NCBI GenBank assembly: GCA_035500675.1
Contig: DATJXA010000132.1
Location: 1-59,902 of the forward strand
Source of the DNA: Bacteroidota bacterium
GTDB lineage: Bacteria > Bacteroidota > Ignavibacteria > UBA10030 > UBA8401
DNA length: 59,902 bases
Reading direction: 5' to 3'
Shown: piece by piece, positions 16,458 through 39,862 of the stretch
Numbering within the stretch: the stretch's first letter is position 1
Layout of the letters: each line of letters begins with the position of its first letter
Made by a program: the position numbers and the translations under genes
The notes under the pieces: model-generated
The model's input: the letters and a program-made list of their open reading frames with translations, nothing else
Database searches by the model: none
What the model was told of the DNA's origin: nothing

Positions 16458-17447
16458 ATGATGGAGTCTTCCCTTTCTCTCAATAAGCCCTTACAATGGT
16501 CTCACCGAGTATGCTTGGCGATGGGCCTTGCGACAATGTTGTTCCCGATCGCTAAAGCCGGAACCGGCAATCAAATAGTTTCGCTGAGCGATAAAACGCT
16601 CGCGTCCGTGATAGCAAGCTCGGATTCGACGGCGCGCAAAGATACTGCAAAGCAAAATCAAGGCAGCACTACAGAATTAAAGTGGTATGATATGATTGCT
16701 CATATCCCGGGGGATTGGGCTCAATACGCTAATATAACATTCCGCGAACAAAACATTCCTTTCTATCTCGGAGTCGGTACAGCTACCACGCTTCTCATGT
16801 TGACAGACAATCAAACATACGAACCGTCAAAAAAGTTGTACGCAAACTCTACGGACGCTCGGACAATAAGCGACATCTTTGTGCAATTGGGCGATGGCAG
16901 TTCTCAGTTTGCCCTGGCGGGGGCATTCGGTATCTACGGTTTTATGGAACACGATGAAAAATCATTACGAACGGGGAGTGAAATTGCCGAAGCGATCCTT
17001 GCAGCAGGAGGCGTTGTTCAGGTATTAAAGCATATTACCGGCCGCGAAAGTCCGTTCGTTTCTTCAAGCCCGACAGGGTTATGGCGATTCTTCCCGAATC
17101 AATTAAAATACAGCAAGCATGTCCCGCATTACGACGCCTTTCCCTCGGGGCATGTATGCACCTCTGTTGTCACTGTTGTTGTGATACAAGAAAACTACCC
17201 GGAAGAAAAGTGGATATCTCCCGTCGGGTATGCAATAACGGGATTAGTAGGGGTGGGGATGGTGAACTACGGCATTCATTGGTACAGCGATTATCCGCTG
17301 GCGATTGCCATCGGCTATACTTTTGGAAAGATTATCTCCCATCCTGAGCTTGTAGGTCAAAATGATTCGCATACGTCAAAGTCTTTATCATTTTTTCCCT
17401 TTCTATCTCCGCACGGATCGGGCGCGACTTTGGACTTCGTTTTTTGA
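16458..17447 (+). CDS. Exported PAP2-family protein with variant motifs
   Basis: KHITGRESP, FPSGH, GMVNYGIHWYSD; N-terminal signal-like segment. Confidence 0.82.
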   Translation: MMESSLSLNKPLQWSHRVCLAMGLATMLFPIAKAGTGNQIVSLSDKTLASVIASSDSTARKDTAKQNQGSTTELKWYDMIAHIPGDWAQYANITFREQNIPFYLGVGTATTLLMLTDNQTYEPSKKLYANSTDARTISDIFVQLGDGSSQFALAGAFGIYGFMEHDEKSLRTGSEIAEAILAAGGVVQVLKHITGRESPFVSSSPTGLWRFFPNQLKYSKHVPHYDAFPSGHVCTSVVTVVVIQENYPEEKWISPVGYAITGLVGVGMVNYGIHWYSDYPLAIAIGYTFGKIISHPELVGQNDSHTSKSLSFFPFLSPHGSGATLDFVF

Positions 17448-19331: not shown

Positions 19332-21092
19332 ATGGCAACAAAAGACTTAGCACAGATGGAGTTTAAGCCGGACCGCCCGTTAAGGAACTTTTTGCATATT
19401 TACAACGGACAGTACCTGAAATTGGTCTGCGCAATAATCCTTTACACAGTAAAGCATTCTCCCGTGTGGATACTCCCGGTGGTCATCGCGCGGCTCATCA
19501 ACATCATCAGCGACACCTCTAAATATTCAGTGCGCGATGTGTGGATGGTCGGCGGAATTTTCTTTCTGGTCATCATCCAAAATATTCCGATGCATACTCT
19601 GTACGTGAGAGTGTTCAGCAGCGCGGTCAACACGATGCAACTGAACCTGCGCTCGGCGATCATCAAGAGGCTCCAGGAATTGTCCATCGCCTTCCACGAT
19701 AAATACCAATCCGGCAAACTTCAAACGAAGGTCCTGCGAGACGTCGAAACCCTCGAAATACTTTCGCGCAATCTGATGAATTCCGTCTTCCCGGCAATTT
19801 TGACGATCATTTTTGCGTTTTCGTTCACGGTCTTTAAGCAGCCGGTCGTCGCTCTTTTTTATGTGATCTCCGTCCCGGTGTCGTCGAGTCTTATATTTTT
19901 CTTTTCGAAACGGATGACCTCGCGCAACCAGGAATATCGCAGTGAGATCGAGTCCCTCTCTGCGAACGTCGTAGAAATGATACAGATGATTCCCATCACG
20001 AGAGCGCACGGGGTCGAAGACGCCGAGGTGTCTAAAATGAAGTCACGGCTCGAGCAAGTGAAGAGCAAAGGGATACGGCTTGAGATGATCGGCGCGTTGT
20101 TCGGGGCGAGTTCATGGACATCGTTCCAGATCGTCATGCTCGTGTGTCTGATCTTTACTTCCATCCTTGCATTCAACAAGAGCATCAGCGTTGGCGACGT
20201 CGTGCTGTTCCAGAGTTTCTTTGCGATGATCGTCGGCGCGGTCAATATGATCCTCAATGCGTACCCCGACCTCGCCCGCGGCTTTGAATCGATCCGATCG
20301 ATCAGCGAAATTCTTGAATCTCCGGATATCGAACAAAACGCCGGGAAGAGACCTGTCGTGTCTGTCGAAGGACATTTCCTTTTTGGCGACGTCGGGTACA
20401 CATATGATAAGGCTCGAGACCCGGCGGTGAGAAATATCAATGTTGAAATATTTCCGGGGGAGTCGGTCGCCGTTGTGGGGGAGTCGGGTTCGGGGAAGTC
20501 GACATTGATGAGCCTTATTATCGGATTTCGAAGACCGACTGCTGGACGGATACTGCTTGACGGTCACGATATGCAGGAATTAGACCTTCGCCAGTATCGC
20601 AAGTTCCTCGCGGTCGTGCCGCAAACGACGCTGTTGTTCAGCGGTTCCGTCCGGGAAAATATTGCGTACGGCGTCGGAACAGTGGACGACCGCTTGGTGT
20701 GGGAAGCGCTGGAATCGGCAAACGCTACGGAGTTCGTTTCAAAAATGCCCAATGGGCTTAACACAAACCTCGGCGAACTGGGAACGCTTTTGTCCGGAGG
20801 TCAGCGACAGCGCATTGCAATCGCGCGGGCGCTTCTGCGAAACCCTAAAGTCATTGTGCTCGATGAAGCCACCTCGTCTCTCGACGTGGTCTCCGAAGCC
20901 TTGATTCAGGAAGCGCTGCAGCGCCTGATACAAGGCCGTACAACTTTCATTGTCGCACATCGATTATCGACTATCCGGAATGCTAAACGAATTCTGGTCA
21001 TGAAAAACGGCTCGTGTGTAGAGTCCGGAGCTCATGAAGAACTCATGAACGCAAAAGGGGAATTCTACAAATATAAACTGTTACAGCAATAA
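19332..21092 (+). CDS. ABC exporter, fused permease/ATPase
   Basis: TM domain, Walker A GESGSGKS, LSGGQRQR, VLDEATSSLD, AHRLST. Start at 19332 (MATKDL) preferred. Confidence 0.93.
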   Translation: MATKDLAQMEFKPDRPLRNFLHIYNGQYLKLVCAIILYTVKHSPVWILPVVIARLINIISDTSKYSVRDVWMVGGIFFLVIIQNIPMHTLYVRVFSSAVNTMQLNLRSAIIKRLQELSIAFHDKYQSGKLQTKVLRDVETLEILSRNLMNSVFPAILTIIFAFSFTVFKQPVVALFYVISVPVSSSLIFFFSKRMTSRNQEYRSEIESLSANVVEMIQMIPITRAHGVEDAEVSKMKSRLEQVKSKGIRLEMIGALFGASSWTSFQIVMLVCLIFTSILAFNKSISVGDVVLFQSFFAMIVGAVNMILNAYPDLARGFESIRSISEILESPDIEQNAGKRPVVSVEGHFLFGDVGYTYDKARDPAVRNINVEIFPGESVAVVGESGSGKSTLMSLIIGFRRPTAGRILLDGHDMQELDLRQYRKFLAVVPQTTLLFSGSVRENIAYGVGTVDDRLVWEALESANATEFVSKMPNGLNTNLGELGTLLSGGQRQRIAIARALLRNPKVIVLDEATSSLDVVSEALIQEALQRLIQGRTTFIVAHRLSTIRNAKRILVMKNGSCVESGAHEELMNAKGEFYKYKLLQQ

Positions 21093-22066: not shown

Positions 22067-22402
22067 CTAATGTTTTTTGGGCTTGGTGACAAATTTTTCG
22101 AGTGCGTCGAGACGTAATTTCCAAAACTGTCGGTAATGTTCAAGCCAGTGTAAAGCCTCGCTGAGCGTATCGACTTCAAGCTGCAGACGGTGGATGCGCC
22201 CATCTTTGGTGCGCGAGACAAGCCCCGCTTTTTCGAGCACGCGAAGATGTTTTGAGATCGCCGGCAGGGACATATCGAACGGCTCCGCAAGCTCGGTGAC
22301 GGTCGCTCCTTCGCTCATCAGGCGCGCGAGGATAGAGCGCCGGGTCGGGTCGGAAAGCGCCCCGAAGACGGCGTCGAGACGGTGTGAAGAATACTTAACC
22401 AT
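22067..22402 (-). CDS. ArsR/SmtB-family transcriptional regulator
   Basis: LDAVFGALSDPTRRSIL, ELAEPFDMSLPAISKHLRVLEKAGLV. Confidence 0.93.
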   Translation of the reverse strand: MVKYSSHRLDAVFGALSDPTRRSILARLMSEGATVTELAEPFDMSLPAISKHLRVLEKAGLVSRTKDGRIHRLQLEVDTLSEALHWLEHYRQFWKLRLDALEKFVTKPKKH

Positions 22403-22438
22403 TTGGTTAAATATAATGGATCACCTTCTCGTTGTCAA
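22395..22438 (-). promoter_or_regulatory. ArsR promoter with overlapping palindromic operator
   Basis: TTGACA (22438-22433), 17 nt spacer, TATATT (22415-22410). Palindrome TTAACCA-TT-TGGTTAA (22395-22410) covers the ATG. Confidence 0.75.
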
Positions 22439-28807: not shown

Positions 28808-30937
28808 CTACTTTCCTTTCATCAGTTCGATGTATTCCGGTTCATTCCGGATCGGGTCGAGATCGGGGTCACGCTTGATCCATTCATAAAATCCATACCC
28901 CGACCCGATTGCTTTCTTCAACGCCTGGAGCGCGAGCGCCTTGTCTCCAACATTTGCGTAGAAACATGCTGCATTGTAGAACATCAGCGGATCGTTCGGG
29001 CTCAATTCGATGGCTCGTGCCGCTTTGGCTTTCGCCTCGTCGAGATGGTCAGTTCGCACCAAGACAAGGGCGTAGAAGATATGAGCCCGCGCGTCGTCGG
29101 GATGCTGCAACAGGTAACGCGGGAACATTTCCATGGAAGCCGTGAGCCATTTCTCAACGTTTTCCTTTTCTTCCAGGCGGCTGTAACACAGCACGATGTC
29201 GCCATAGGCTGTATAAAAATCGGCGTTGAGTTCGACAACCTTCCGGAACATCTCTGCCGCTTCCCGCACGCGGTCGGTGGTGACATACGTTCGGCCGAGT
29301 ATCCAATAGGCGGTATGATTGCTCGGGTTCAGCTCGATCGCTTTCTGACTCGATTCCAGTGCTTCGCCGTGCGACTTCTTATAAAGATAGACGAGACCCA
29401 ACGCGGAATACGCCTCGGACAATGAGGGGTCGTACATCAACGCTTTGAGGCCTGCTTCCAGCGCTTTGTCCAGCAGGGTATCGTTCCTTTCGAACTGTTG
29501 GTAGAGGTGCGCGTACGCCTCGCTTAACCCCGCATACGCGTCGGCATATCGCACGTCATACTCGATTGCTTTTTGAAAAAGTTCGATCGCGATCTGCACG
29601 CCGTTTTTTGTGAACCGATACATCGAGTCTCGTGCGCGCAAATTGCAATCGAATGCCTGAGCGCTCAACGTCGGACGCTTTGTGAGCACCACCTGCTCTT
29701 TCGGGGTGAGTTTGACCATCAGGGCATCGACGATCTGTTTTGAAACTTTTTCCTGAATATCAAAAACGTCCTCGAGCTTACCTTTGTACGTTTCCGCCCA
29801 GAGCTGCGCGTCTGCGTCGACATCGACGAGCTCGACGGCGATGCGGAGGTTGTCCTGAAATTTTCTGACGCTTCCCGCAAGGATGTAGCGCGTGTCGAGC
29901 TCTCGTCCGATCGTCTTGACGTCCTTGGTCGTCGTTTTGTACTGCATCGATGTCGTCCGCGGCACGACCCGAATATCTTTGAGCCTAGACAAGTTGATGA
30001 TCAGCTCTTCCGTAAGGCCGTCGCTGAAATAGTCGCTTTCTTTATCGGGACTGATATTGCCGAACGGGAGTACAGCGATCGCTTTTGTCTGGGGTTGAGT
30101 CTGGGCGCTTTCGATCGCCTTGAGTGTGTCCTGTAAAGAGTGGAGCACTTCATCGGCAGTTTGATAGCGCTGCAACCGATCCTTCGCCAGCATCTTTTTG
30201 ATGAGAGAGTCTACTTGATGGGGAATTTTTCTGTCCATCAGGCTTGGAACGGGAGGATCTTCGTTCACGATCAGATAGAGCAATCCGGCTTCATGTTCCG
30301 ATTTAAATGGAAGGTCGGCGGTGAGTATTTCATAGAGCACGACACCCAGAGACCAAATATCGGACCGCTGATCGGCGGCTTCGCCCTGAGCCTGTTCGGG
30401 CGACATGTACGACAACGTTCCGAGCGATGTGCCGGTTCTTGTCAAACCGGAACTGCTTTTAAGTTTCGCGATGCCGAAATCCATGATCTTGAGCTTTCCG
30501 TCGTTCGTCAGCATGACGTTTTCCGGCTTGATATCCCGATGGACGATATTTTTTCCATGGGCCGCCTTGAGCCCTTCAGCGATCTGCGATGCCCACGCGA
30601 TCGCCTGCTGCACCGGAACGCCCGTCCCTGATTTCAAATTTGTCATGTATCTCTTCAGAGTCGTCCCTTCGAGATACTCCATCACGAGGAACATTCCGTC
30701 GTCGTGCTCATCGATCTCATACACGTTAAGGATGTTCGGATGATTAAGGGATGCAGTCGCCTTCGCCTCTTGAAGGAATCGCGCTTTACTGTCTGCAGAC
30801 GCTGAAAGGTGAGAAGGAAGGATCTTGATCGCGACCATACGGTCGAGCTTCAGGTCCTGGGCCTTATAGACAACGCCCATACCGCCTTCGCCGAGCTTTT
30901 CGAGAATTTTATAGTGTGAGATTGTTGAACCGATCAT
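28808..30937 (-). CDS. Hanks-type Ser/Thr protein kinase (STK1) with TolB-N-like domain and TPRs
   Basis: LGEGGMGVVY, VAIK, HRDIKPEN, DFG; AIAVLPFGN...YFSDGLTEELI; TPRs ending YNAAC...DPDLDPIR. Confidence 0.95.
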   Translation of the reverse strand: MIGSTISHYKILEKLGEGGMGVVYKAQDLKLDRMVAIKILPSHLSASADSKARFLQEAKATASLNHPNILNVYEIDEHDDGMFLVMEYLEGTTLKRYMTNLKSGTGVPVQQAIAWASQIAEGLKAAHGKNIVHRDIKPENVMLTNDGKLKIMDFGIAKLKSSSGLTRTGTSLGTLSYMSPEQAQGEAADQRSDIWSLGVVLYEILTADLPFKSEHEAGLLYLIVNEDPPVPSLMDRKIPHQVDSLIKKMLAKDRLQRYQTADEVLHSLQDTLKAIESAQTQPQTKAIAVLPFGNISPDKESDYFSDGLTEELIINLSRLKDIRVVPRTTSMQYKTTTKDVKTIGRELDTRYILAGSVRKFQDNLRIAVELVDVDADAQLWAETYKGKLEDVFDIQEKVSKQIVDALMVKLTPKEQVVLTKRPTLSAQAFDCNLRARDSMYRFTKNGVQIAIELFQKAIEYDVRYADAYAGLSEAYAHLYQQFERNDTLLDKALEAGLKALMYDPSLSEAYSALGLVYLYKKSHGEALESSQKAIELNPSNHTAYWILGRTYVTTDRVREAAEMFRKVVELNADFYTAYGDIVLCYSRLEEKENVEKWLTASMEMFPRYLLQHPDDARAHIFYALVLVRTDHLDEAKAKAARAIELSPNDPLMFYNAACFYANVGDKALALQALKKAIGSGYGFYEWIKRDPDLDPIRNEPEYIELMKGK

Positions 30938-30974
30938 GATATATCCTTTGTAATCCTTGTTCGTTTTATGTTGA

Positions 30975-31629
30975 TCGACCCCAAAGGGGTCGAATTGTAC
31001 AGGACCGGGGCAACGCCCCGACTCATATTGGAAACAAGCCTCTATGAACCCTGAAAGGGTGAAACAATTATGTCAATCCCAGATATAACGTTCATCAAAT
31101 TTGATCTTGTATGCATTCAAAAATGCACGATACTCATCTTGAAAAATTTTCTTACGATGATGCTCTTCTTGGTTTGCAATATATTTTTTTACACGCTCAA
31201 CCTCAGATTGACCTACAGAAAATGCGCCATACCCGTTCTGCCATGCGAATTTGGACAAGAGCCCCCCTTTCGACTTGATCCATTTCGATGACCCGCGTTT
31301 GATTTCGCCTACTACCTTTGCGATAGAGAGATTGCGCGACAATGAAGAAAGAATATGCACATGATCTGCAACTCCTCCAACAATCAAAACGGGACAATCG
31401 AGATTTTTACACGTGCCGCCGAGATAGGCGTGTAATTCTTTGCGTACAGTTTTGTCAACGAGAAATGGGAACCTGTGCTTCGTCGAAAAAACAATGTGTA
31501 TCAGAACGTTCGCAAGTGATTGAGACATATCCCCCCCCCATATAACCCTTTCAGGGTTACTGATTAGTACGGTTTGTTGTGTGCCGAGGACGATGTCCTC
31601 GGTTGAATTATGCTTCCCCCTTGGGGAAG
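30975..31629. mobile_element. Y1 transposase flanked by inverted three-hairpin modules (REPtron-like unit)
   Basis: Module 30975-31060 (+) and module 31543-31629 (-) enclose tnpA, with ACCCT-GAA-AGGGT hairpins nearest the gene on both sides. Confidence 0.7.
31073..31528 (-). CDS. tnpA: IS200/IS605-superfamily Y1 (HUH) transposase, RAYT-like
   Basis: IHIVFSTKHR, HUH motif DHVHIL, SSKWI, WQNGYGAFSV, catalytic Tyr in KYIANQEEHH. No adjacent tnpB. Confidence 0.9.
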   Translation of the reverse strand: MSQSLANVLIHIVFSTKHRFPFLVDKTVRKELHAYLGGTCKNLDCPVLIVGGVADHVHILSSLSRNLSIAKVVGEIKRGSSKWIKSKGGLLSKFAWQNGYGAFSVGQSEVERVKKYIANQEEHHRKKIFQDEYRAFLNAYKIKFDERYIWD

Positions 31630-32484
31630 GTTTAGGCGTTATCCTTTTTTAATGATTTAATAAAATTCTTTGATGAAAATACTTCCCAATCAATAACTGC
31701 AACGACCCTGAAAGGGTCCCATATTCAAGGTCGGGGCAACGCCCTAACCTGAAACGATCTAAATACAATGATGAACCCCGAAGGGGTGATATATTTCTCT
31801 TCTCAGGAGTATCTTCCATTGTATTTCTTCTTAAGTATGTAACCCTTTCAGGGTAACACGGTAATACGATTTGTCGCACTCCGCGGGCAATGCCCTCGGT
31901 TACAGTATTCTTCCCCTGCGGGGAAGAATCATGCTTTACATTATTATATTAACCACAAAACATCGCACTCAGTTAACGCGTTGCTCCAATTCGGGAAATA
32001 ATTGTTTTCAATCAGAAAATGTGATGACCCTGAAAGGGTTCGATATTCAAAGGCGGGGCAACGCCCCAACCTGAAACGATTTAAATACAATGTTGGACCC
32101 CGAAGGGGTGATATATTTTTTTCCGCACGGATACCTTGTTTATGTTTTCTTGATTATGGAACCCTTTCAGGGTATCGTATTAATGGGTTTGTCGTTTTCG
32201 AGGGCATTGCCCTCGGTTACAATATCCTTCCCCCTTTGGGGAAGACGATGGCTTTATCTATTTTAGAAATGCAAGAAAATCTTTTAATAAAAATATTTCA
32301 CAATCAATAAATGTGACGACCCTGAAAGGGTTCGATATTCAAAGGCGGGGCAACGCCCCGACGAAGAGGATTCGACTATAATGATGAACCCCGAAGGGGT
32401 GATATATTTCTCTTCTCAGGAGTATCTTCACCTTCGTAGAAGAACACTTTTCAAGAGTGTAATAGCGCGAGATTATTCAACCGA

Positions 32485-34458
32485 TCATTGCTGTTTGCTC
32501 CAAACGTTATTCGACAGATCGACGTCGGGCAATTGAAAATCGGGATCCACAATGACTGAATCTATTGCACTCGTCGAATGATACTTAAATTTCCACGTTT
32601 TGTGCGACAGCCAGATTTCAACGGGCAAATTAACTCTTCCGGATTTGCCGTTTGATTCCTTCACCTCGACGGTCACCGGCATGACCATCTTATCGTTATT
32701 CTGAATCGTGATGAGAGAACCTTTGGACGGATCGTTATCAACATACGCGACGTTCGTGACGGCCTGATCGAGTTTCCAATTTTTTACGAACCATCCCTTC
32801 CAGAACCAGTTGAGATTTTCCCCGGCTGCATTGTTCATGCACCTGAAAAAATCGAACGGACCGGGATGCTTGAACGCCCAATTTTTAATATAATTTCTGA
32901 ATGCATAATCGAATCGTTCGGGTCCAACTATATAATTTCTCAAAAGCACAAGGCCGAATGAGGTTTTGAAATACTCCAAGGGGTGAACGTACTTCCCAGG
33001 GATGTTATCGGCATAGGTTAAAATAGGAGGAAGAGTGTCACTCAAATAAGGAACGACCTCTCGCGCCGGATTTCCCCCATTCGGCGCATACTCCCCGTCC
33101 CGTTTCGGCGCATATTCGCCATGATTAAAATCCTCGAACGACAGGATATCGATGAATGTATTGAACCCCTCGTCCATCCATGCGTCCTCCCTTTCATTCG
33201 AACCGACGATCATCGGAAACCAATTATGCCCGATCTCATGATTGATCACCATCCATAATTCTTTTCTTGTCGACTTGTACCAGCAAAAAACAATCGCTGG
33301 ATACTCCATCCCTCCGACAGGTCCGCCGACCGTGACAGCGTTCGGATAAGGGTATTCAAACCAGTGCTTGGAAAAAATTTCCACGCTGTTTTTCAAATAT
33401 TCTGTCGCCCTCCCCCACGCCGTATCTCCATCGCTTTCAATTGGATATACCGAATGAGCCAAACACGGTTTGCTGCTCGGCAAATTGACCTTTGCCGCGT
33501 CCCAGATAAATGCCCTCGAGCTTGCCCAAGAAACGTCGCGGGCGTTGTGAATGATATAATGCCAAACATCTCTCCCTTCAGCAGTCGGCCGAGCTTCACC
33601 TTTGCCGATTTCTGACGGGGAAATAATATAGACAGTTCTATTGCTTTTTCGAGCTTTGTTGAGCCGGCCGATCTCGGTCTTCGTTAAAACTTCCCCGGGG
33701 TTGACCAGTTCACCCGACGCGGCGACAATCTGATCCCACGGGACGTCGACGCTGAAGTCGTAATCGCCATAGTCCAAATAAAATTCGCCGCTTCCTAGGA
33801 ACGGAAGCGTGTTCCATCCTTTTATATCATCATACACCGCCATCCGTGGATACCATTGAGCGATATCATAGACGAGGCCGTTCTTCGAGTTCATCCATCC
33901 GGATCGTCCGAGTCCCTGGGGCGCGATTTTGAAAGAATATCTGATATGGATCTGAATCTTTCCGCCTTTGGATTTCAGCGCCGCGGCCAGCCGTATTTGC
34001 ATCCTCGTATCGGTGATCAGGTAGTGAGCCGGCTGCAATTTGCCGCCTTCGGAAATTGAAACGTCTTTTATATCGAACCCTCCGTTAAATTCTTCTGTGC
34101 CGCTGAGGTTCGGACCGGAAAGCGCTCTCGATCGGGAATCGTTTCTAAATCTGTTTTGGTCCAGGTACAGCCAAACATAGTCCAGGTTATTCGGGCTGTT
34201 GTTTGTGTACGCGATGACTTCATCCGCAGTAATGCTGGCATCGCCTTCGTTCAATCGTGCATGTATTTTATAGTCGGCTTTGTTTTGCCAATACCCCGGC
34301 CCCGGCGTGCCGTCGGCACTTCTATAGAGTGAACCTCCGTTTGCGTCAAACAAGGGGTCAAAAGTTTCCCTCGGATCATAACTCGAATGCTCTTGAGCGA
34401 TCAATGGAGTAATGAAGAAGAGAACGGGAAGCCAAAAATATTTTTTCTCAATGCACAT
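32485..34458 (-). CDS. Exported M1-family metallopeptidase
   Basis: Signal peptide; GGMEYP, HEIGHNW (HExxH), WMDEGFN. Confidence 0.93.
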   Translation of the reverse strand: MCIEKKYFWLPVLFFITPLIAQEHSSYDPRETFDPLFDANGGSLYRSADGTPGPGYWQNKADYKIHARLNEGDASITADEVIAYTNNSPNNLDYVWLYLDQNRFRNDSRSRALSGPNLSGTEEFNGGFDIKDVSISEGGKLQPAHYLITDTRMQIRLAAALKSKGGKIQIHIRYSFKIAPQGLGRSGWMNSKNGLVYDIAQWYPRMAVYDDIKGWNTLPFLGSGEFYLDYGDYDFSVDVPWDQIVAASGELVNPGEVLTKTEIGRLNKARKSNRTVYIISPSEIGKGEARPTAEGRDVWHYIIHNARDVSWASSRAFIWDAAKVNLPSSKPCLAHSVYPIESDGDTAWGRATEYLKNSVEIFSKHWFEYPYPNAVTVGGPVGGMEYPAIVFCWYKSTRKELWMVINHEIGHNWFPMIVGSNEREDAWMDEGFNTFIDILSFEDFNHGEYAPKRDGEYAPNGGNPAREVVPYLSDTLPPILTYADNIPGKYVHPLEYFKTSFGLVLLRNYIVGPERFDYAFRNYIKNWAFKHPGPFDFFRCMNNAAGENLNWFWKGWFVKNWKLDQAVTNVAYVDNDPSKGSLITIQNNDKMVMPVTVEVKESNGKSGRVNLPVEIWLSHKTWKFKYHSTSAIDSVIVDPDFQLPDVDLSNNVWSKQQ

Positions 34459-36886: not shown

Positions 36887-37023
36887 AATATTTTTCTCCC
36901 CCTCCCGCCAAAGAACGGCGGGATGCTCAAATTTTCAATCCCGCAAAAAAGCTGCGGGAGAAAATTTGGCACTTCGCCGAGCTTCTCGAGGATTTTATAG
37001 TGCGATATTGTCTGTCCGATCAT
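36835..37023 (-). repeat. 52-nt direct repeat (36972-37023 vs 36835-36886) flanking an 85-nt double-hairpin insert
   Basis: 43/52 identical; 8 synonymous changes plus ATG/GTG. Hairpins at 36928-36968 and 36903-36923. Confidence 0.9.
36883..37023 (-). CDS. Unannotated 46-aa leader ORF duplicating the STK2 N-terminus
   Basis: MIGQTISHYKILEKLGE-VPNFLPQLFCGIENLSIPPFFGGRGRKIL*. TGA (36885-36883) overlaps the STK2 GTG. An alternative ATG lies at 37026. Confidence 0.6.
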   Translation of the reverse strand: MIGQTISHYKILEKLGEVPNFLPQLFCGIENLSIPPFFGGRGRKIL

Positions 37024-39719: not shown

Positions 39720-39862
39720 CGCATAATTTCCTTTCCCCTCCCGCCGAAAAACGGCGGGATTCTCAAAATCACTGCCACTCGCTGAGTAGGGCTCGTGGGT
39801 GATTTTGGAACTTCGCCCAGTTGCTCGAGAATTTCATACTGAAGAATTGTTTTACCGATCAC
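39668..39862 (-). repeat. 52-nt direct repeat (39811-39862 vs 39668-39719) flanking a 91-nt double-hairpin insert
   Basis: 48/52 identical; 3 synonymous changes plus GTG/ATG. Hairpins at 39764-39807 and 39739-39759. Confidence 0.9.
39716..39862 (-). CDS. Unannotated 48-aa leader ORF duplicating the STK3 N-terminus
   Basis: AAGGAG RBS then GTG; MIGKTILQYEILEQLGE-VPKSPTSPTQRVAVILRIPPFFGGRGKEIMR*. TGA overlaps the STK3 ATG (ATGA). Confidence 0.65.
   Translation of the reverse strand: MIGKTILQYEILEQLGEVPKSPTSPTQRVAVILRIPPFFGGRGKEIMR

Follow-up and report, generated by a model that had tools for sequence, protein, structure and literature searches.

The window, by which we mean the whole 59.9 kb stretch of DNA that was analysed, contains a lone tnpA gene for a homologue of the HUH/Y1 single-stranded DNA (ssDNA) transposases. 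The gene lies between a Ser/Thr kinase gene and an M1 peptidase gene and is bracketed by the first two (A and B) of seven repeat modules, each of ∼95 nt with three GC-rich triloop hairpins. The modules alternate strictly between the + and − orientations, and five further modules (C–G) lie beyond the bracketing pair. The features are listed below; bit scores refer to a covariance model of the module and fold energies are computed for DNA.

31073–31528, − strand: tnpA, 151-residue HUH/Y1 ssDNA transposase homologue, with DHVH at residues 55–58, WQ at 96–97 and YIANQEEHH at 116–124
30971–31066, + strand: module A, 3′-type, beginning 6 nt past the tnpA stop codon; 61.8 bits; fold −21.2 kcal/mol, z −4.6
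30975–30993, 31006–31020 and 31048–31060: hairpins of module A from the hairpin scan, TCGACCCCAAAGGGGTCGA, CGGGGCAACGCCCCG and ACCCTGAAAGGGT, respectively
31539–31634, − strand: module B, 5′-type, ending 10 nt ahead of the tnpA start codon; 68.1 bits; fold −19.9 kcal/mol, z −5.9
31543–31559, 31584–31602 and 31613–31629: hairpins of module B
31698–31793, + strand: module C, 3′-type, left half of the tnpA-less doublet C–D; 63.3 bits; 60% identical to A and 79–89% to E and G
31836–31931, − strand: module D, 5′-type with a GTAA foot, right half of doublet C–D; 66.9 bits; 71% identical to B
32020–32115, + strand: module E, 3′-type, left half of doublet E–F; 56.9 bits
32155–32249, − strand: module F, 5′-type with a GTAA foot, right half of doublet E–F; 66.4 bits
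32312–32406, + strand: module G, 3′-type, a half doublet followed by 29 nt of C–D-type inner spacer and an abrupt end; 63.7 bits
31531–31539, − strand: G9 run (C9 when read on the + strand) separating module B from the tnpA start codon; purine-rich, resembling a ribosome-binding site
32447–32488, − strand: decayed kinase-gene stump, the first 14 codons (MIG*IISRYYTLEK), whose ATG overlaps the M1 peptidase stop codon (ATGA)

With filters off, the covariance model gave exactly seven matches in the window (57–68 bits) and nothing convincing outside the array, which agrees with a previous reading made from the sequence alone (the sequence-only reading) that had described seven alternating three-hairpin modules around a lone Y1 gene. 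The 21 short GC-rich hairpins counted there need qualification: 18 are perfect with 3 nt loops, and the rest have 4 bp stems, a mismatch or a 4 nt loop. The 18 perfect hairpins (stem of at least 5, loop of 3) were found in 1091 nt of intergenic DNA, dinucleotide shuffles of which gave a mean of 1.6 and a maximum of seven in 300 shuffles; the rate is 16.5 per kilobase at the array versus 1.05 per kilobase across the remaining window. ACCCTGAAAGGGT occurs seven times, every time at the tnpA array, with none expected. The gaps from + to − modules (54 and 51 nt) and from − to + modules (74, 97 and 74 nt) are as first described (54, 51 and ∼74–97 nt), and the repeats are spaced 322/291 and 297/319 nt apart. 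In computed folds of ssDNA all seven modules form three hairpins (−13.9 to −23.5 kcal/mol, z −1.8 to −5.9). The + and − modules are two distinct subtypes, with identities of 55–89% among A, C, E and G and of 65–71% among B, D and F, and of only 44–52% across types.

Upstream of tnpA there are two and a half further doublets (5′-type module, ∼52 nt, 3′-type module). Doublets C–D and E–F mirror the A–tnpA–B layout, with ∼52 nt in place of tnpA and the 5′-type and 3′-type identities kept. Over 53 nt, a repeat family at module G (D3) shares 98% identity with the sequence from the third hairpin of C into its spacer. The outer edge of the inserted block is marked by the kinase-gene stump at 32447–32488, identified from a direct repeat (D7; 30900–30937 versus 32451–32488, 79% identical) and read against two other loci, one with an intact M1–ATGA–kinase arrangement (L219) and one with a stump, a hairpin and the kinase gene (L220). 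The window has no tnpB: between the kinase and peptidase genes there is no tnpB-sized open reading frame, all other frames being shorter than 110 residues. Two-hairpin 'kinase leader' cassettes at 36887–36971 and 39720–39810 were considered as relatives of the module and rejected; they give no model match and have different hairpins without GAA loops.

An IS200-related enzyme

TnpA is a member of the HUH/Y1 superfamily, having its HUH metal-binding motif, catalytic tyrosine and ferredoxin-like fold. The open reading frame matches PF01797 (Y1_Tnp) with an E value of 2.8e-27; His56, His58, Tyr116 and the WQ pair are invariant across 44 homologues, and the Y---Q--HH motif is kept in 90 of 93. The AF2 model has a pLDDT of 90.2, and its best relatives in the PDB are the TnpA proteins of IS608 (Foldseek E value of 1.9e-8) and ISDra2. 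The sequence-only reading had assigned the protein to a RAYT class, and this assignment failed. Against the NCBIfam models TnpA scores 72 bits for the IS200 equivalog (NF033573; cutoff 55) and 21.1 bits for REP_Tyr_transpos (NF047646; cutoff 80). Escherichia coli RayT gives no BLAST match to the window TnpA and an hhalign probability of 0.3, and the RAYT signature Y---NP is absent, the tyrosine motif being YIANQ. An alignment of the GTAG-contact residues of E. coli RayT to TnpA was also attempted; the profile alignment was not significant and no claim is drawn from it. A tree of the kind proposed in the sequence-only reading, with three outside references that are all long branches, sets TnpA and its homologues apart as a clade closer to IS200 than to RayT, and resolves nothing beyond that.

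TnpAY1 subclass 1.2 is defined by DH[IV]H, WQ, Y---Q--HH, a length of ∼148 residues and a conserved C-terminal tail (Quentin, Siguier, Chandler & Fichant, 2018, PMC6006769, Table 1). The motifs of the window protein match exactly (DH[IV]H, WQ, YIxNQxEHH; ∼148–151 residues; conserved tail). Judged by its sequence, TnpA belongs to this IS200-related subclass and not to the class 2 RAYT/TnpA(REP) proteins.

The IS200 equivalog score and the IS608 and ISDra2 structures would also suit an ordinary IS200-type insertion sequence with elaborate ends, in which the extra modules arose by slippage or unequal recombination (a ∼300 bp tandem duplication) and the transposase does not spread tnpA-less copies. 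The distribution of the gene speaks against this: the exact protein was found at one locus only, one homologue was seen on 22 contigs in essentially a single context, and homologues of more than 35% identity were found on only two of 72,556 plasmids, both of which are replicons of more than 600 kb.

These same properties, an apparently single-copy gene essentially absent from plasmids, could instead point to a domesticated host function without mobility (fork handling, local recombination or control of the kinase gene), with the modules kept as binding sites. The protein is strongly conserved (71–78% identity over 151 residues, at constant length) in many Ignavibacteria and Bacteroidota metagenome-assembled genomes (MAGs), and both in the window and at locus L006 a co-oriented Ser/Thr kinase gene lies immediately downstream of tnpA. 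Such a role is nevertheless very improbable. The context of tnpA differs among relatives (STK/M1, PrsW/STK, DUF2277/trigger factor–ClpP and Wzi/GAF–SpoIIE), an Acidobacteriota tnpA pseudogene is still accompanied by its modules, and relatives with an orthologous M1 peptidase (75–77% identity) have neither tnpA nor modules. The downstream kinase of these relatives is only 32% identical, so that this insert-free comparison, which the sequence-only reading had suggested, stands at the level of the neighbourhood and not of base-exact sites.

A module conserved in structure and in its association with tnpA

A gene-keyed sample was assembled by picking loci on TnpA similarity alone (52–77% identity). 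The module is present at 79 of the 82 homologue loci (96%). Upstream, 59 of 77 loci have a + module with a median end ∼12 nt before the start codon; downstream, a − module is found at 53 of 73, with a median start ∼6 nt after the stop codon. Modules lie on both sides of tnpA at 44 of 68 loci; the module–tnpA–module layout, proposed as the unit, is conserved among homologues. Module density is 6.5 per kilobase within 150 nt of tnpA and ∼0.03 per kilobase beyond 1 kb (a ∼200-fold difference), and control loci (E. coli rayT, two canonical IS200/IS605 loci and two relatives' loci without tnpA) contained no module matches. The pairing of gene and module recurs in about a dozen bacterial phyla, including Acidobacteriota, Planctomycetota, Verrucomicrobiota/Lentisphaerota, Chlamydiota, Chloroflexota, Fibrobacterota and Calditrichota, and over this range the loops and cores of the hairpins hardly vary. 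The subtype rule seen in the window also held at other loci in 16 of 18 decided cases: extra modules oriented as the 5′ module are 5′-type (8/9) and those oriented as the 3′ module are 3′-type (8/9).

Each module consists of Ha (a GAA-type triloop mini-hairpin), a central GC hairpin Hb with an RTAG-type foot on its 5′ side, and Hc (a second GAA triloop), which is nearest to the gene. Across 130 modules 93.3% of cells are paired versus 77.0% in shuffles, with a covariation score of 0.426 versus 0.133 that none of 500 shuffles reached. The independent gene-keyed set of 112 modules gave 89.6% versus 70.7% and 0.541 versus 0.175, with double-sided changes at 21 of 22 pairs. Covariation is strong in all three stems; the module hairpins are under structural selection.

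The modules are also asymmetric between strands. The closing pair of Hc is T–G in 62 modules, T–A in 59, C–G in nine and C–A in none, with a search pattern that permitted all four, and a second set gave T–G 29 times and C–A once. Summed over the 14 inner stem pairs there are 62 G–T versus seven A–C, in an alignment fitted by a model that favours G–U pairs. The excess of G–T over A–C thus marks the strand carrying the GAA loops as the folding strand. It follows that the modules on either side of tnpA are read from opposite strands, a poor fit to a function in one mRNA. A GAA triloop closed by C–G, as in the d(GCGAAGC) of Hirao and co-workers, is reportedly a hallmark of very stable DNA mini-hairpins.

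The sequence-only reading had seen no GTAG-type foot, and this has to be revised. At least 90% of modules have AG directly 5′ of Hb, a dinucleotide that the search pattern did not include; the commonest forms are AATAG and AGTAG. The family consensus is RTAG, with the canonical GTAG in Acidobacteriota. In the window, the central hairpin is immediately preceded on its 5′ side by GTAA in D and F (GTAACCGAGGGCAWTGCCC...), whereas B has TCAA and A, C, E and G have (C)AGG or AAGG.

Part of the module coincides with a known Rfam family, Acido-Lenti-1 (RF01687), which is typed as 'Gene; sRNA' and for which the source paper noted only occasional nearness to group II introns (Weinberg 2010, PMC2864571). 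Matches to RF01687 coincide with Ha, the foot and Hb of module variants, with the third GAA hairpin 25–30 nt away; the family thus corresponds to two of the three module hairpins, read on the opposite strand. Matches above the gathering score (37 bits) lie on both sides of a subclass 1.2 tnpA at two loci (L200 and L206), and homologous modules at other loci score 37–58 bits. The window modules are below the RF01687 threshold, and no Rfam family matches positions 30500–33000 at an E value of 1 or less. The partnership between gene and module appears to explain this orphan 'RNA family'.

The modules might conversely be structured RNAs, either the Acido-Lenti-1 sRNA itself or a cis-acting leader or terminator-stabilizer of the tnpA mRNA, with a regulatory link to tnpA. 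The RF01687 matches and the strong covariation are compatible with this, and Hc, ∼10–15 nt ahead of the start codon and beside a Shine–Dalgarno-like purine run, could affect translation. The G9 run in the window is identical in five independent assemblies, and homologues have a G-rich or GGAG-like stretch at the same place. We nevertheless regard an RNA role as improbable. RF01687 lies on the strand opposite to that favoured by the G–T versus A–C asymmetry, the window modules themselves match no Rfam family at an E value of 1 or less, and the modules flanking tnpA are inverted, so that no single transcript could include both in their favoured sense. The doublets are convergent palindromes, like REPINs, and C–G-closed GAA triloops are, as noted above, reportedly typical of very stable DNA mini-hairpins. 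Terminator-like matches are not enriched (four versus 2.2 ± 1.8 expected); three of them, the module hairpins, are on the + strand, antisense to tnpA and to both neighbours.

Doublets without tnpA and a possible mechanism

The sequence-only reading took the downstream inverted pairs to be REPIN-like derivatives of the tnpA unit. The derivation is supported, in that C–D and E–F copy A–tnpA–B and doublets in relatives keep stumps of the tnpA ends; a genome-wide spread was not seen in the window or in two metagenomes. One case is Persicobacter sp. JZB09, where six doublets surround the tnpA unit within 13 kb and their inner spacers align by eye with the tnpA 5′ UTR and last codons; another is an array in a different Ignavibacteria or Bacteroidota species, in which codons 1–11 of tnpA come after a 5′ module. 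The spacers of the window doublets were also examined as descendants of the tnpA ends, and their similarity was too weak for this to be claimed; it is clearer in Persicobacter and at locus L209.

Doublets can lie far from tnpA. At 106 of 120 pattern-keyed genome loci there is no tnpA within the 8 kb locus, and most of these have convergent doublets. Two tnpA-less doublet sites are ∼1.4 Mb apart on one Acidobacteriota chromosome, and in one MAG doublets occur on six contigs; local slippage cannot be the source of these. In Persicobacter sp. JZB09 modules are found at 9 + 1 places on two replicons, seven of them within 13 kb of tnpA. The Persicobacter doublets have ∼55–60 nt of outer flank in common, and the open reading frames around them are nearly equal in length and may be paralogues, so that segmental duplication could have multiplied them.

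In the source organism, spread was seen only within the locus (59.9 kb window and two metagenomes). The two metagenomes holding the organism showed no extra contig depth on the modules at a likeness of at least 80%. Three full-length and two partial independent assemblies agree on the window array with 100% identity, and thus give no indication of ongoing movement. For one identical TnpA elsewhere, the downstream array is 874, 820 or 159 nt long depending on the sample. The AT-rich gaps between the window doublets are homologous to one another (75–81% identity), which tandem duplication fits at least as well as transposition, and the array of a relative has 54 nt tandem sub-repeats. The homologous gaps, the sub-repeats, the static array and the lack of copies outside the locus in the window and two metagenomes all suit the ordinary IS200-type insertion sequence considered above. 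The distant doublets do not, and nor do ends that are inverted and each fold on their own GAA strand, since IS200/IS605 elements have non-inverted ends that are both processed on a single strand. We therefore judge it unlikely, if less so than an RNA role.

The locus is probably a REPtron/REPIN-like unit built on an IS200-related enzyme and not on a classical RAYT. We infer that TnpA binds, cleaves and mobilizes the modules. In DNA exposed as a single strand, such as at a replication fork, the GAA-loop strand of each module would fold; a TnpA dimer would then bind the central hairpin with its foot, in the way that IS608 TnpA and E. coli TnpA(REP) recognize their own hairpins. Cleavage through a phosphotyrosine intermediate at Tyr116 and rejoining nearby could copy or move doublets, and replication slippage and unequal recombination between repeats could make the array grow or shrink. 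The further doublets upstream of tnpA would be copies of the tnpA unit from which the gene has been deleted. Activity would have stayed local in this Ignavibacteria genome, whereas in other phyla modules are scattered far from tnpA.

More broadly, we lean slightly towards the view that the subclass 1.2 enzymes and the module form a third, unrecognized lineage of REP/REPIN type, rooted inside the IS200 class or at its base, independent of or ancestral to the classical RAYTs and long kept, with Acido-Lenti-1 being the complementary DNA strand and not an sRNA. This would give a testable function to two orphans: the subclass described in 2018 with neither IS properties nor REPs, and an abundant Rfam family of unknown function since 2010. 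It suggests that partnerships of REP type are not confined to the classical RAYTs, which bears on whether Y1 transposases were domesticated once or repeatedly, a question raised for 'IS200 Group 3' by Bertels 2017. The conservation of the module over phyla and the enzyme size of only 151 residues make the system attractive for structural and biochemical work on HUH recognition of a composite ssDNA hairpin site. For annotation, these elements break metagenome assemblies, with Logan contigs ending inside the array, and are now labelled as IS200 transposases or sRNA.

Relation to known systems

The IS200/IS605 elements (IS608, ISDra2 and IS200) contain the closest relatives of the enzyme in sequence and in fold, and presumably share its chemistry: an HUH metal site, a tyrosine nucleophile and recognition of ssDNA hairpins. 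Their ends are non-inverted, have a single subterminal hairpin each and are processed on the same strand, in contrast to the inverted three-hairpin modules described here. They occur in multiple identical copies, frequently on plasmids and often with tnpB, none of which is true of the window element.

The TIRYT/TIRtron systems (Di Nocera 2013, PMC3733652) are alike in that long terminal inverted repeats (TIRs) flank their Y1 genes and also form moderately abundant families of dimers and clusters, Acidobacteria included. TIRYTs are mostly of subclass 2.1, with an HTH tail and a GGGGWSAS TIR motif; the window TnpA has neither and its modules do not follow the motif. The module words are absent from the text of that paper, and a literature search with them returned only unrelated NF-κB probe papers.

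TnpAY1 subclass 1.2, reported without REPs and without IS properties (Quentin et al., 2018, PMC6006769), resembles the window system, beyond its motifs, in an apparently low copy number and apparent lack of IS properties, and in its presence in Bacteroidetes. The differences from the published description are that a module accompanies 96% of the sampled loci and that the taxonomic range is far wider.

The REP/BIME–RAYT systems, or REPtrons and REPINs (Nunvar 2010; Bertels & Rainey 2011, PMC3116915; Messing 2012, PMC3479197), differ in their enzyme, which is of class 2 (Y---NP) whereas the window enzyme is of the IS200-related class 1 (Y---Q--HH), and in their repeat, which is one hairpin and not a ∼95 nt composite of three. 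REP sequences are species-specific, whereas the sequence of the three-hairpin module is conserved across phyla, and unlike in REPIN systems the copy numbers seen are low to moderate, with the copies in the window confined to the locus. The likeness is otherwise extensive: an apparently single-copy Y1/HUH gene without tnpB is flanked by inverted palindromic repeats; two repeat subtypes alternate in orientation, as do the Y and Z REPs in BIMEs; inverted doublets lack tnpA and repeats cluster beside the gene; and, at the level of the module family, a foot resembling GT[AG]G lies 5′ of a GC hairpin.

Anatomy of the array

The tnpA gene is flanked by genes for a Ser/Thr kinase and an M1 peptidase.

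Features of the locus
28808-30937, minus strand: Ser/Thr kinase gene (Pkinase and TPR)
31073-31528, minus strand: tnpA, a 151-amino-acid open reading frame (PF01797 Y1_Tnp, E = 2.8e-27)
32485-34458, minus strand: M1 peptidase gene

The 1091 nt of intergenic DNA around tnpA hold 18 perfect hairpins (stem of at least 5 bp, 3-nt loop), against 1.6 in dinucleotide shuffles of the same DNA (maximum of 7 in 300); the hairpin rate is 16.5 per kb at the locus versus 1.05 per kb in the remaining window. On its own strand each module reads Ha, ∼14 nt, Hb, 27-30 nt, Hc, for example GACCCTGAAAGGGTC for Ha, CGGGGCAACGCCCCG for Hb and ACCCYGAARGGGT for Hc. A search with R1, a covariance model of the module, with filters off gave exactly seven ∼95-nt modules, A+, B-, C+, D-, E+, F- and G+ (57-68 bits), and no further convincing match in the 59.9 kb of the window; folding as single-stranded DNA gave three hairpins in all seven. 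Hairpin scan, model search and folding thus confirm the seven alternating three-hairpin modules around a Y1 gene that the sequence-only reading described. Weak matches at 17273-17346, 19954-20037 and 22306-22413 (8.7-11.2 bits, E = 0.19-0.99) lack recognizable hairpin triplets and were taken as noise.

The modules form two subtypes, the + modules (A, C, E, G) being 55-89% identical and the - modules (B, D, F) 65-71%, with 44-52% identity between subtypes. Read along the sense strand of tnpA, the locus starts with half-doublet G, continues with doublets F→←E and D→←C and 5'-type module B, and ends, past tnpA, in 3'-type module A; a doublet is an inverted module pair without tnpA. By this order D-C and F-E mirror B-tnpA-A, except that 54 and 51 nt, respectively, separate their inner hairpins in place of the gene. 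On the tnpA strand, nine consecutive G (31531-31539) stand between the start codon and the 5' module, similar to a Shine-Dalgarno site or a slippage tract; their number was equal in five assemblies, so that no phase variation was seen, and homologues carry GGAG, GAGG or runs of G at the matching position. Short-read contigs (L002, L005 and those of runs X1 and X2) end within the array at 31787-31796, 32038-32055 and 32347-32400, so module arrays are probably under-represented or truncated in metagenome-assembled genomes (MAGs).

The enzyme and its partnership with the modules

The tnpA product scores 72 bits against the NCBIfam IS200/IS605 equivalog (cutoff 55) and 21 bits against REP_Tyr_transpos, below the cutoff of 80. 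Its only sequence relatives in the PDB are IS608 and IS200-type TnpA, and its AlphaFold model (pLDDT 90.2) matches IS608 and ISDra2 TnpA at E of about 1e-8 and E. coli TnpA(REP) (PDB entry 4ER8) at 1e-4. BLAST returned canonical IS200 TnpAs at 31-34% identity and no match to E. coli RayT; a profile comparison of the TnpA family with RayT was not significant. The family forms its own clade in a small tree (93/91 support), closer to IS200 than to RayT. The proposal of a RAYT class was therefore not borne out: judged by its sequence, the enzyme is IS200-related and not a classical RAYT. Its motifs (DHVH, WQ, YIANQEEHH), length of 151 amino acids and conserved tail (…DERYIWD) are, at the sequence level, the exact signature of TnpAY1 subclass 1.2 (Quentin et al., 2018). 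Y---Q--HH is present in 90 of 93 homologues examined, and His56, His58, Trp96, Gln97 and Tyr116 are invariant among homologues. Subclass 1.2 was published as low-copy, not IS-like, 'REP: no' and mostly limited to Cyanobacteria and Bacteroidetes (Quentin et al., 2018; PMC6006769). It is possibly identical to 'IS200 Group 3' of Bertels et al. (2017), which has no duplicates, is absent from plasmids and has moderately abundant 16-mers as flanks.

Loci were chosen by protein similarity alone: 80 metagenome contigs (52-77% TnpA identity) and two others. R1 found 237 modules in these 330 kb, with at least one module in 79 of the 82 loci. A + module lies just upstream of tnpA in 59/77 loci, its end usually 4-15 nt from the start codon, and a - module just downstream in 53/73, usually starting 1-8 nt past the stop; both sides are occupied in 44/68. 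In the 150 nt next to tnpA the module density is 6.5 per kb; beyond 1 kb it is about 0.03 per kb. Three or more modules occur in 29 of the 82 loci, two of which have eight and ten (matches of at least 25 bits); the array of seven is thus at the high end of the range and not unique. Extra modules in the 5'-module orientation resemble the 5' module in eight of nine decided cases, and those in the 3'-module orientation resemble the 3' module, also in 8/9. R1 gave zero matches in E. coli rayT, two canonical IS200/IS605 elements and two relatives' loci without tnpA. The association of modules with tnpA homologues in other genomes, as anticipated from the window, is general. One homologue in an Acidobacteriota MAG (L018:1780-2226) is interrupted by an in-frame stop and its Y motif is degenerate (YIAGQKERH), yet well formed modules (81 and 77 bits) flank it on both sides.

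Module structure, foot and folding strand

A scan for the Hb...Hc pattern, with one genome per species, gave at least 120 stretches where we estimate about 1.4 chance matches. The matches listed come from Acidobacteriota, Planctomycetota, Bacteroidota, Ignavibacteriota, Verrucomicrobiota/Lentisphaerota/Kiritimatiellota, Chlamydiota, Chloroflexota, Fibrobacterota, Calditrichota, Hydrogenedentes, Sumerlaeota and Desulfobacterota; among them Ha, absent from the search pattern, is a hairpin at the expected place in 135 of 139 instances. Stems are paired in 93.3% of cells of a 130-module alignment versus 77.0% in shuffles, and the covariation score is 0.426 versus 0.133, a value reached by 0 of 500 shuffles; Ha pair 9-22, for instance, is A-T in 52, T-A in 34 and G-C in 33. 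The independent 112 modules chosen through tnpA, in an alignment fitted to the model, are 89.6% paired versus 70.7% (score 0.541 versus 0.175), and 21 of 22 pairs show changes on both sides. All three stems of this ancient structure are under selection. Exact pattern matches also occur in a contig labelled as an Akkermansia muciniphila MAG (L097, a provisional assignment) and in the Gemmataceae isolate CJuql4 (L116), convenient for experiments as contigs assigned to well studied or cultured organisms.

The loops are conserved: Ha and Hc have GAA (about 60% in Ha), and Hb has AAC or ATC. The absence of a GTAG-type foot, noted from the window, fails for the family. Directly 5' of Hb the foot keeps AG in 90% or more of modules, most often as AATAG or AGTAG, and in Acidobacteriota foot and Hb read GTAG-CCGGGGGCAACGCCCCCGG, a canonical GTAG REP. 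Within the window the foot is GTAA in D and F and degenerate in the other modules. The closing pair of Hc, left open to all four combinations in the search pattern, is T-G in 62, T-A in 59, C-G in 9 and C-A in 0 in the first set, and T-A in 63, T-G in 29, C-G in 13 and C-A in 1 in the second; inner stem pairs are G-T versus A-C in 62 versus 7. The GAA-loop strand is therefore the only one on which wobble pairs are tolerated. C-GAA-G triloops are exceptionally stable DNA mini-hairpins, which fits a role for the modules as single-stranded DNA.

Some module variants match an Rfam family, Acido-Lenti-1 (RF01687): the window has no Rfam match, and in other loci the matches are the opposite strand of Ha, foot and Hb, with a third GAA hairpin 25-30 nt past them. 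In L200 and L206 both modules flanking a subclass 1.2 tnpA exceed the gathering score. For Acido-Lenti-1, Weinberg (2010; PMC2864571) gave phyla and occasional nearness to group II introns, nothing more, and our literature search found no paper tying it to a transposase. Being inverted, the modules around tnpA read on opposite strands, as in REP/REPIN doublets; neither a single mRNA nor IS608-like single-strand excision would need this. We regard an RNA function of the modules as improbable.

Copies without tnpA and the proposed mechanism

Among the matches listed, 106 of 120 pattern-selected loci lack a tnpA homologue in their 8 kb; their modules are mostly convergent doublets, Hc inward, with inner gaps of 0 to about 160 nt, mostly near 0-3, 11-17 or 37-42 nt. 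Also among these matches, doublets lie about 1.4 Mb apart on one closed Acidobacteriota chromosome, on six contigs of one MAG and on three or four in several others. The cultured Persicobacter sp. JZB09, a cultivable organism for testing the system, has a tnpA (49% identity) flanked by modules, and six tnpA-less doublets plus one tnpA unit lie within 13 kb in uniform orientation (L225; CP012861.1 266725-306819); BLAST located nine places on the 632-kb replicon and one on another. The doublet inner gaps are 37-39 nt each, and the spacers align by eye with the tnpA 5'UTR and last codons. Outer flanks of about 55-60 nt are common to the doublets, and open reading frames of similar length (535/535/538 and 405/406 amino acids) alternate with them; besides transposition, segmental duplication may have played a part. 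In the species carrying homologue P0079, samples of closely related populations with identical TnpA have downstream arrays of 874, 820 or 159 nt (L209:3440-4345 versus L212 and L213); the long array (L209) has a stump of the first 11 tnpA codons behind a 5' module and, in tandem, four 54-nt sub-repeats, each made of one hairpin and its flank. These data show that slippage or recombination reshapes arrays. They also support doublets as internal-deletion derivatives of the tnpA unit, in keeping with the non-autonomous pairs of the sequence-only reading.

In the source organism, the exact TnpA has one locus only, with neighbours unchanged in seven contigs. Five independent assemblies, three of them full-length and two partial, agree at 100% identity in the 1.6-kb block. 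Two wetland metagenomes containing the organism gave no extra contig depth on modules at 80% likeness or more, while the nearby kinase N-terminus piles up 25-fold; no module spread was seen in the 59.9-kb window or in the contigs of these metagenomes. This local confinement is what a plain insertion sequence with locally duplicated ends would give; set beside the distant doublets elsewhere, that explanation is unlikely. Neighbourhood comparison showed that relatives with a 75-77% identical M1 peptidase have no tnpA or module within 5 kb. The peptidase stop overlaps an intact kinase start (ATGA) in L219:6955-7040; in L220:6955-7110 ATGA leads into a stump and one hairpin, then the kinase. In the window, ATGA over the peptidase stop leads into a decayed 14-codon kinase stump (MIG*IISRYYTLEK, 32447-32488, minus strand), and the array, tnpA and module A lie between it and the intact kinase start (30900-30937). 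The block is thus a lineage-specific insertion or replacement. We consider a non-mobile host function very improbable. Kinase 5' ends seem to be recurrent insertion-with-duplication sites in these genomes.

On the model of IS608 TnpA and E. coli TnpA(REP) (PMC3479197), TnpA dimers would bind the footed Hb on the GAA strand of transiently single-stranded DNA. Ha and Hc may position or stabilize the complex or present cleavage sites; a conserved A-T-A four to seven nucleotides 3' of Hc is a candidate. Strand cleavage and rejoining by Tyr116 would copy or move doublets, and slippage and unequal exchange would also expand and trim local arrays. We consider it probable that TnpA acts on the module hairpins in this way. 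A Y1 enzyme with cognate palindromic repeats is a known kind of system. Against the literature searched, what appears to be new is that the enzyme belongs to an IS200-related subclass, 1.2, published as REP-less, and that its repeat is a three-hairpin composite, conserved in sequence across phyla and overlapping Acido-Lenti-1.
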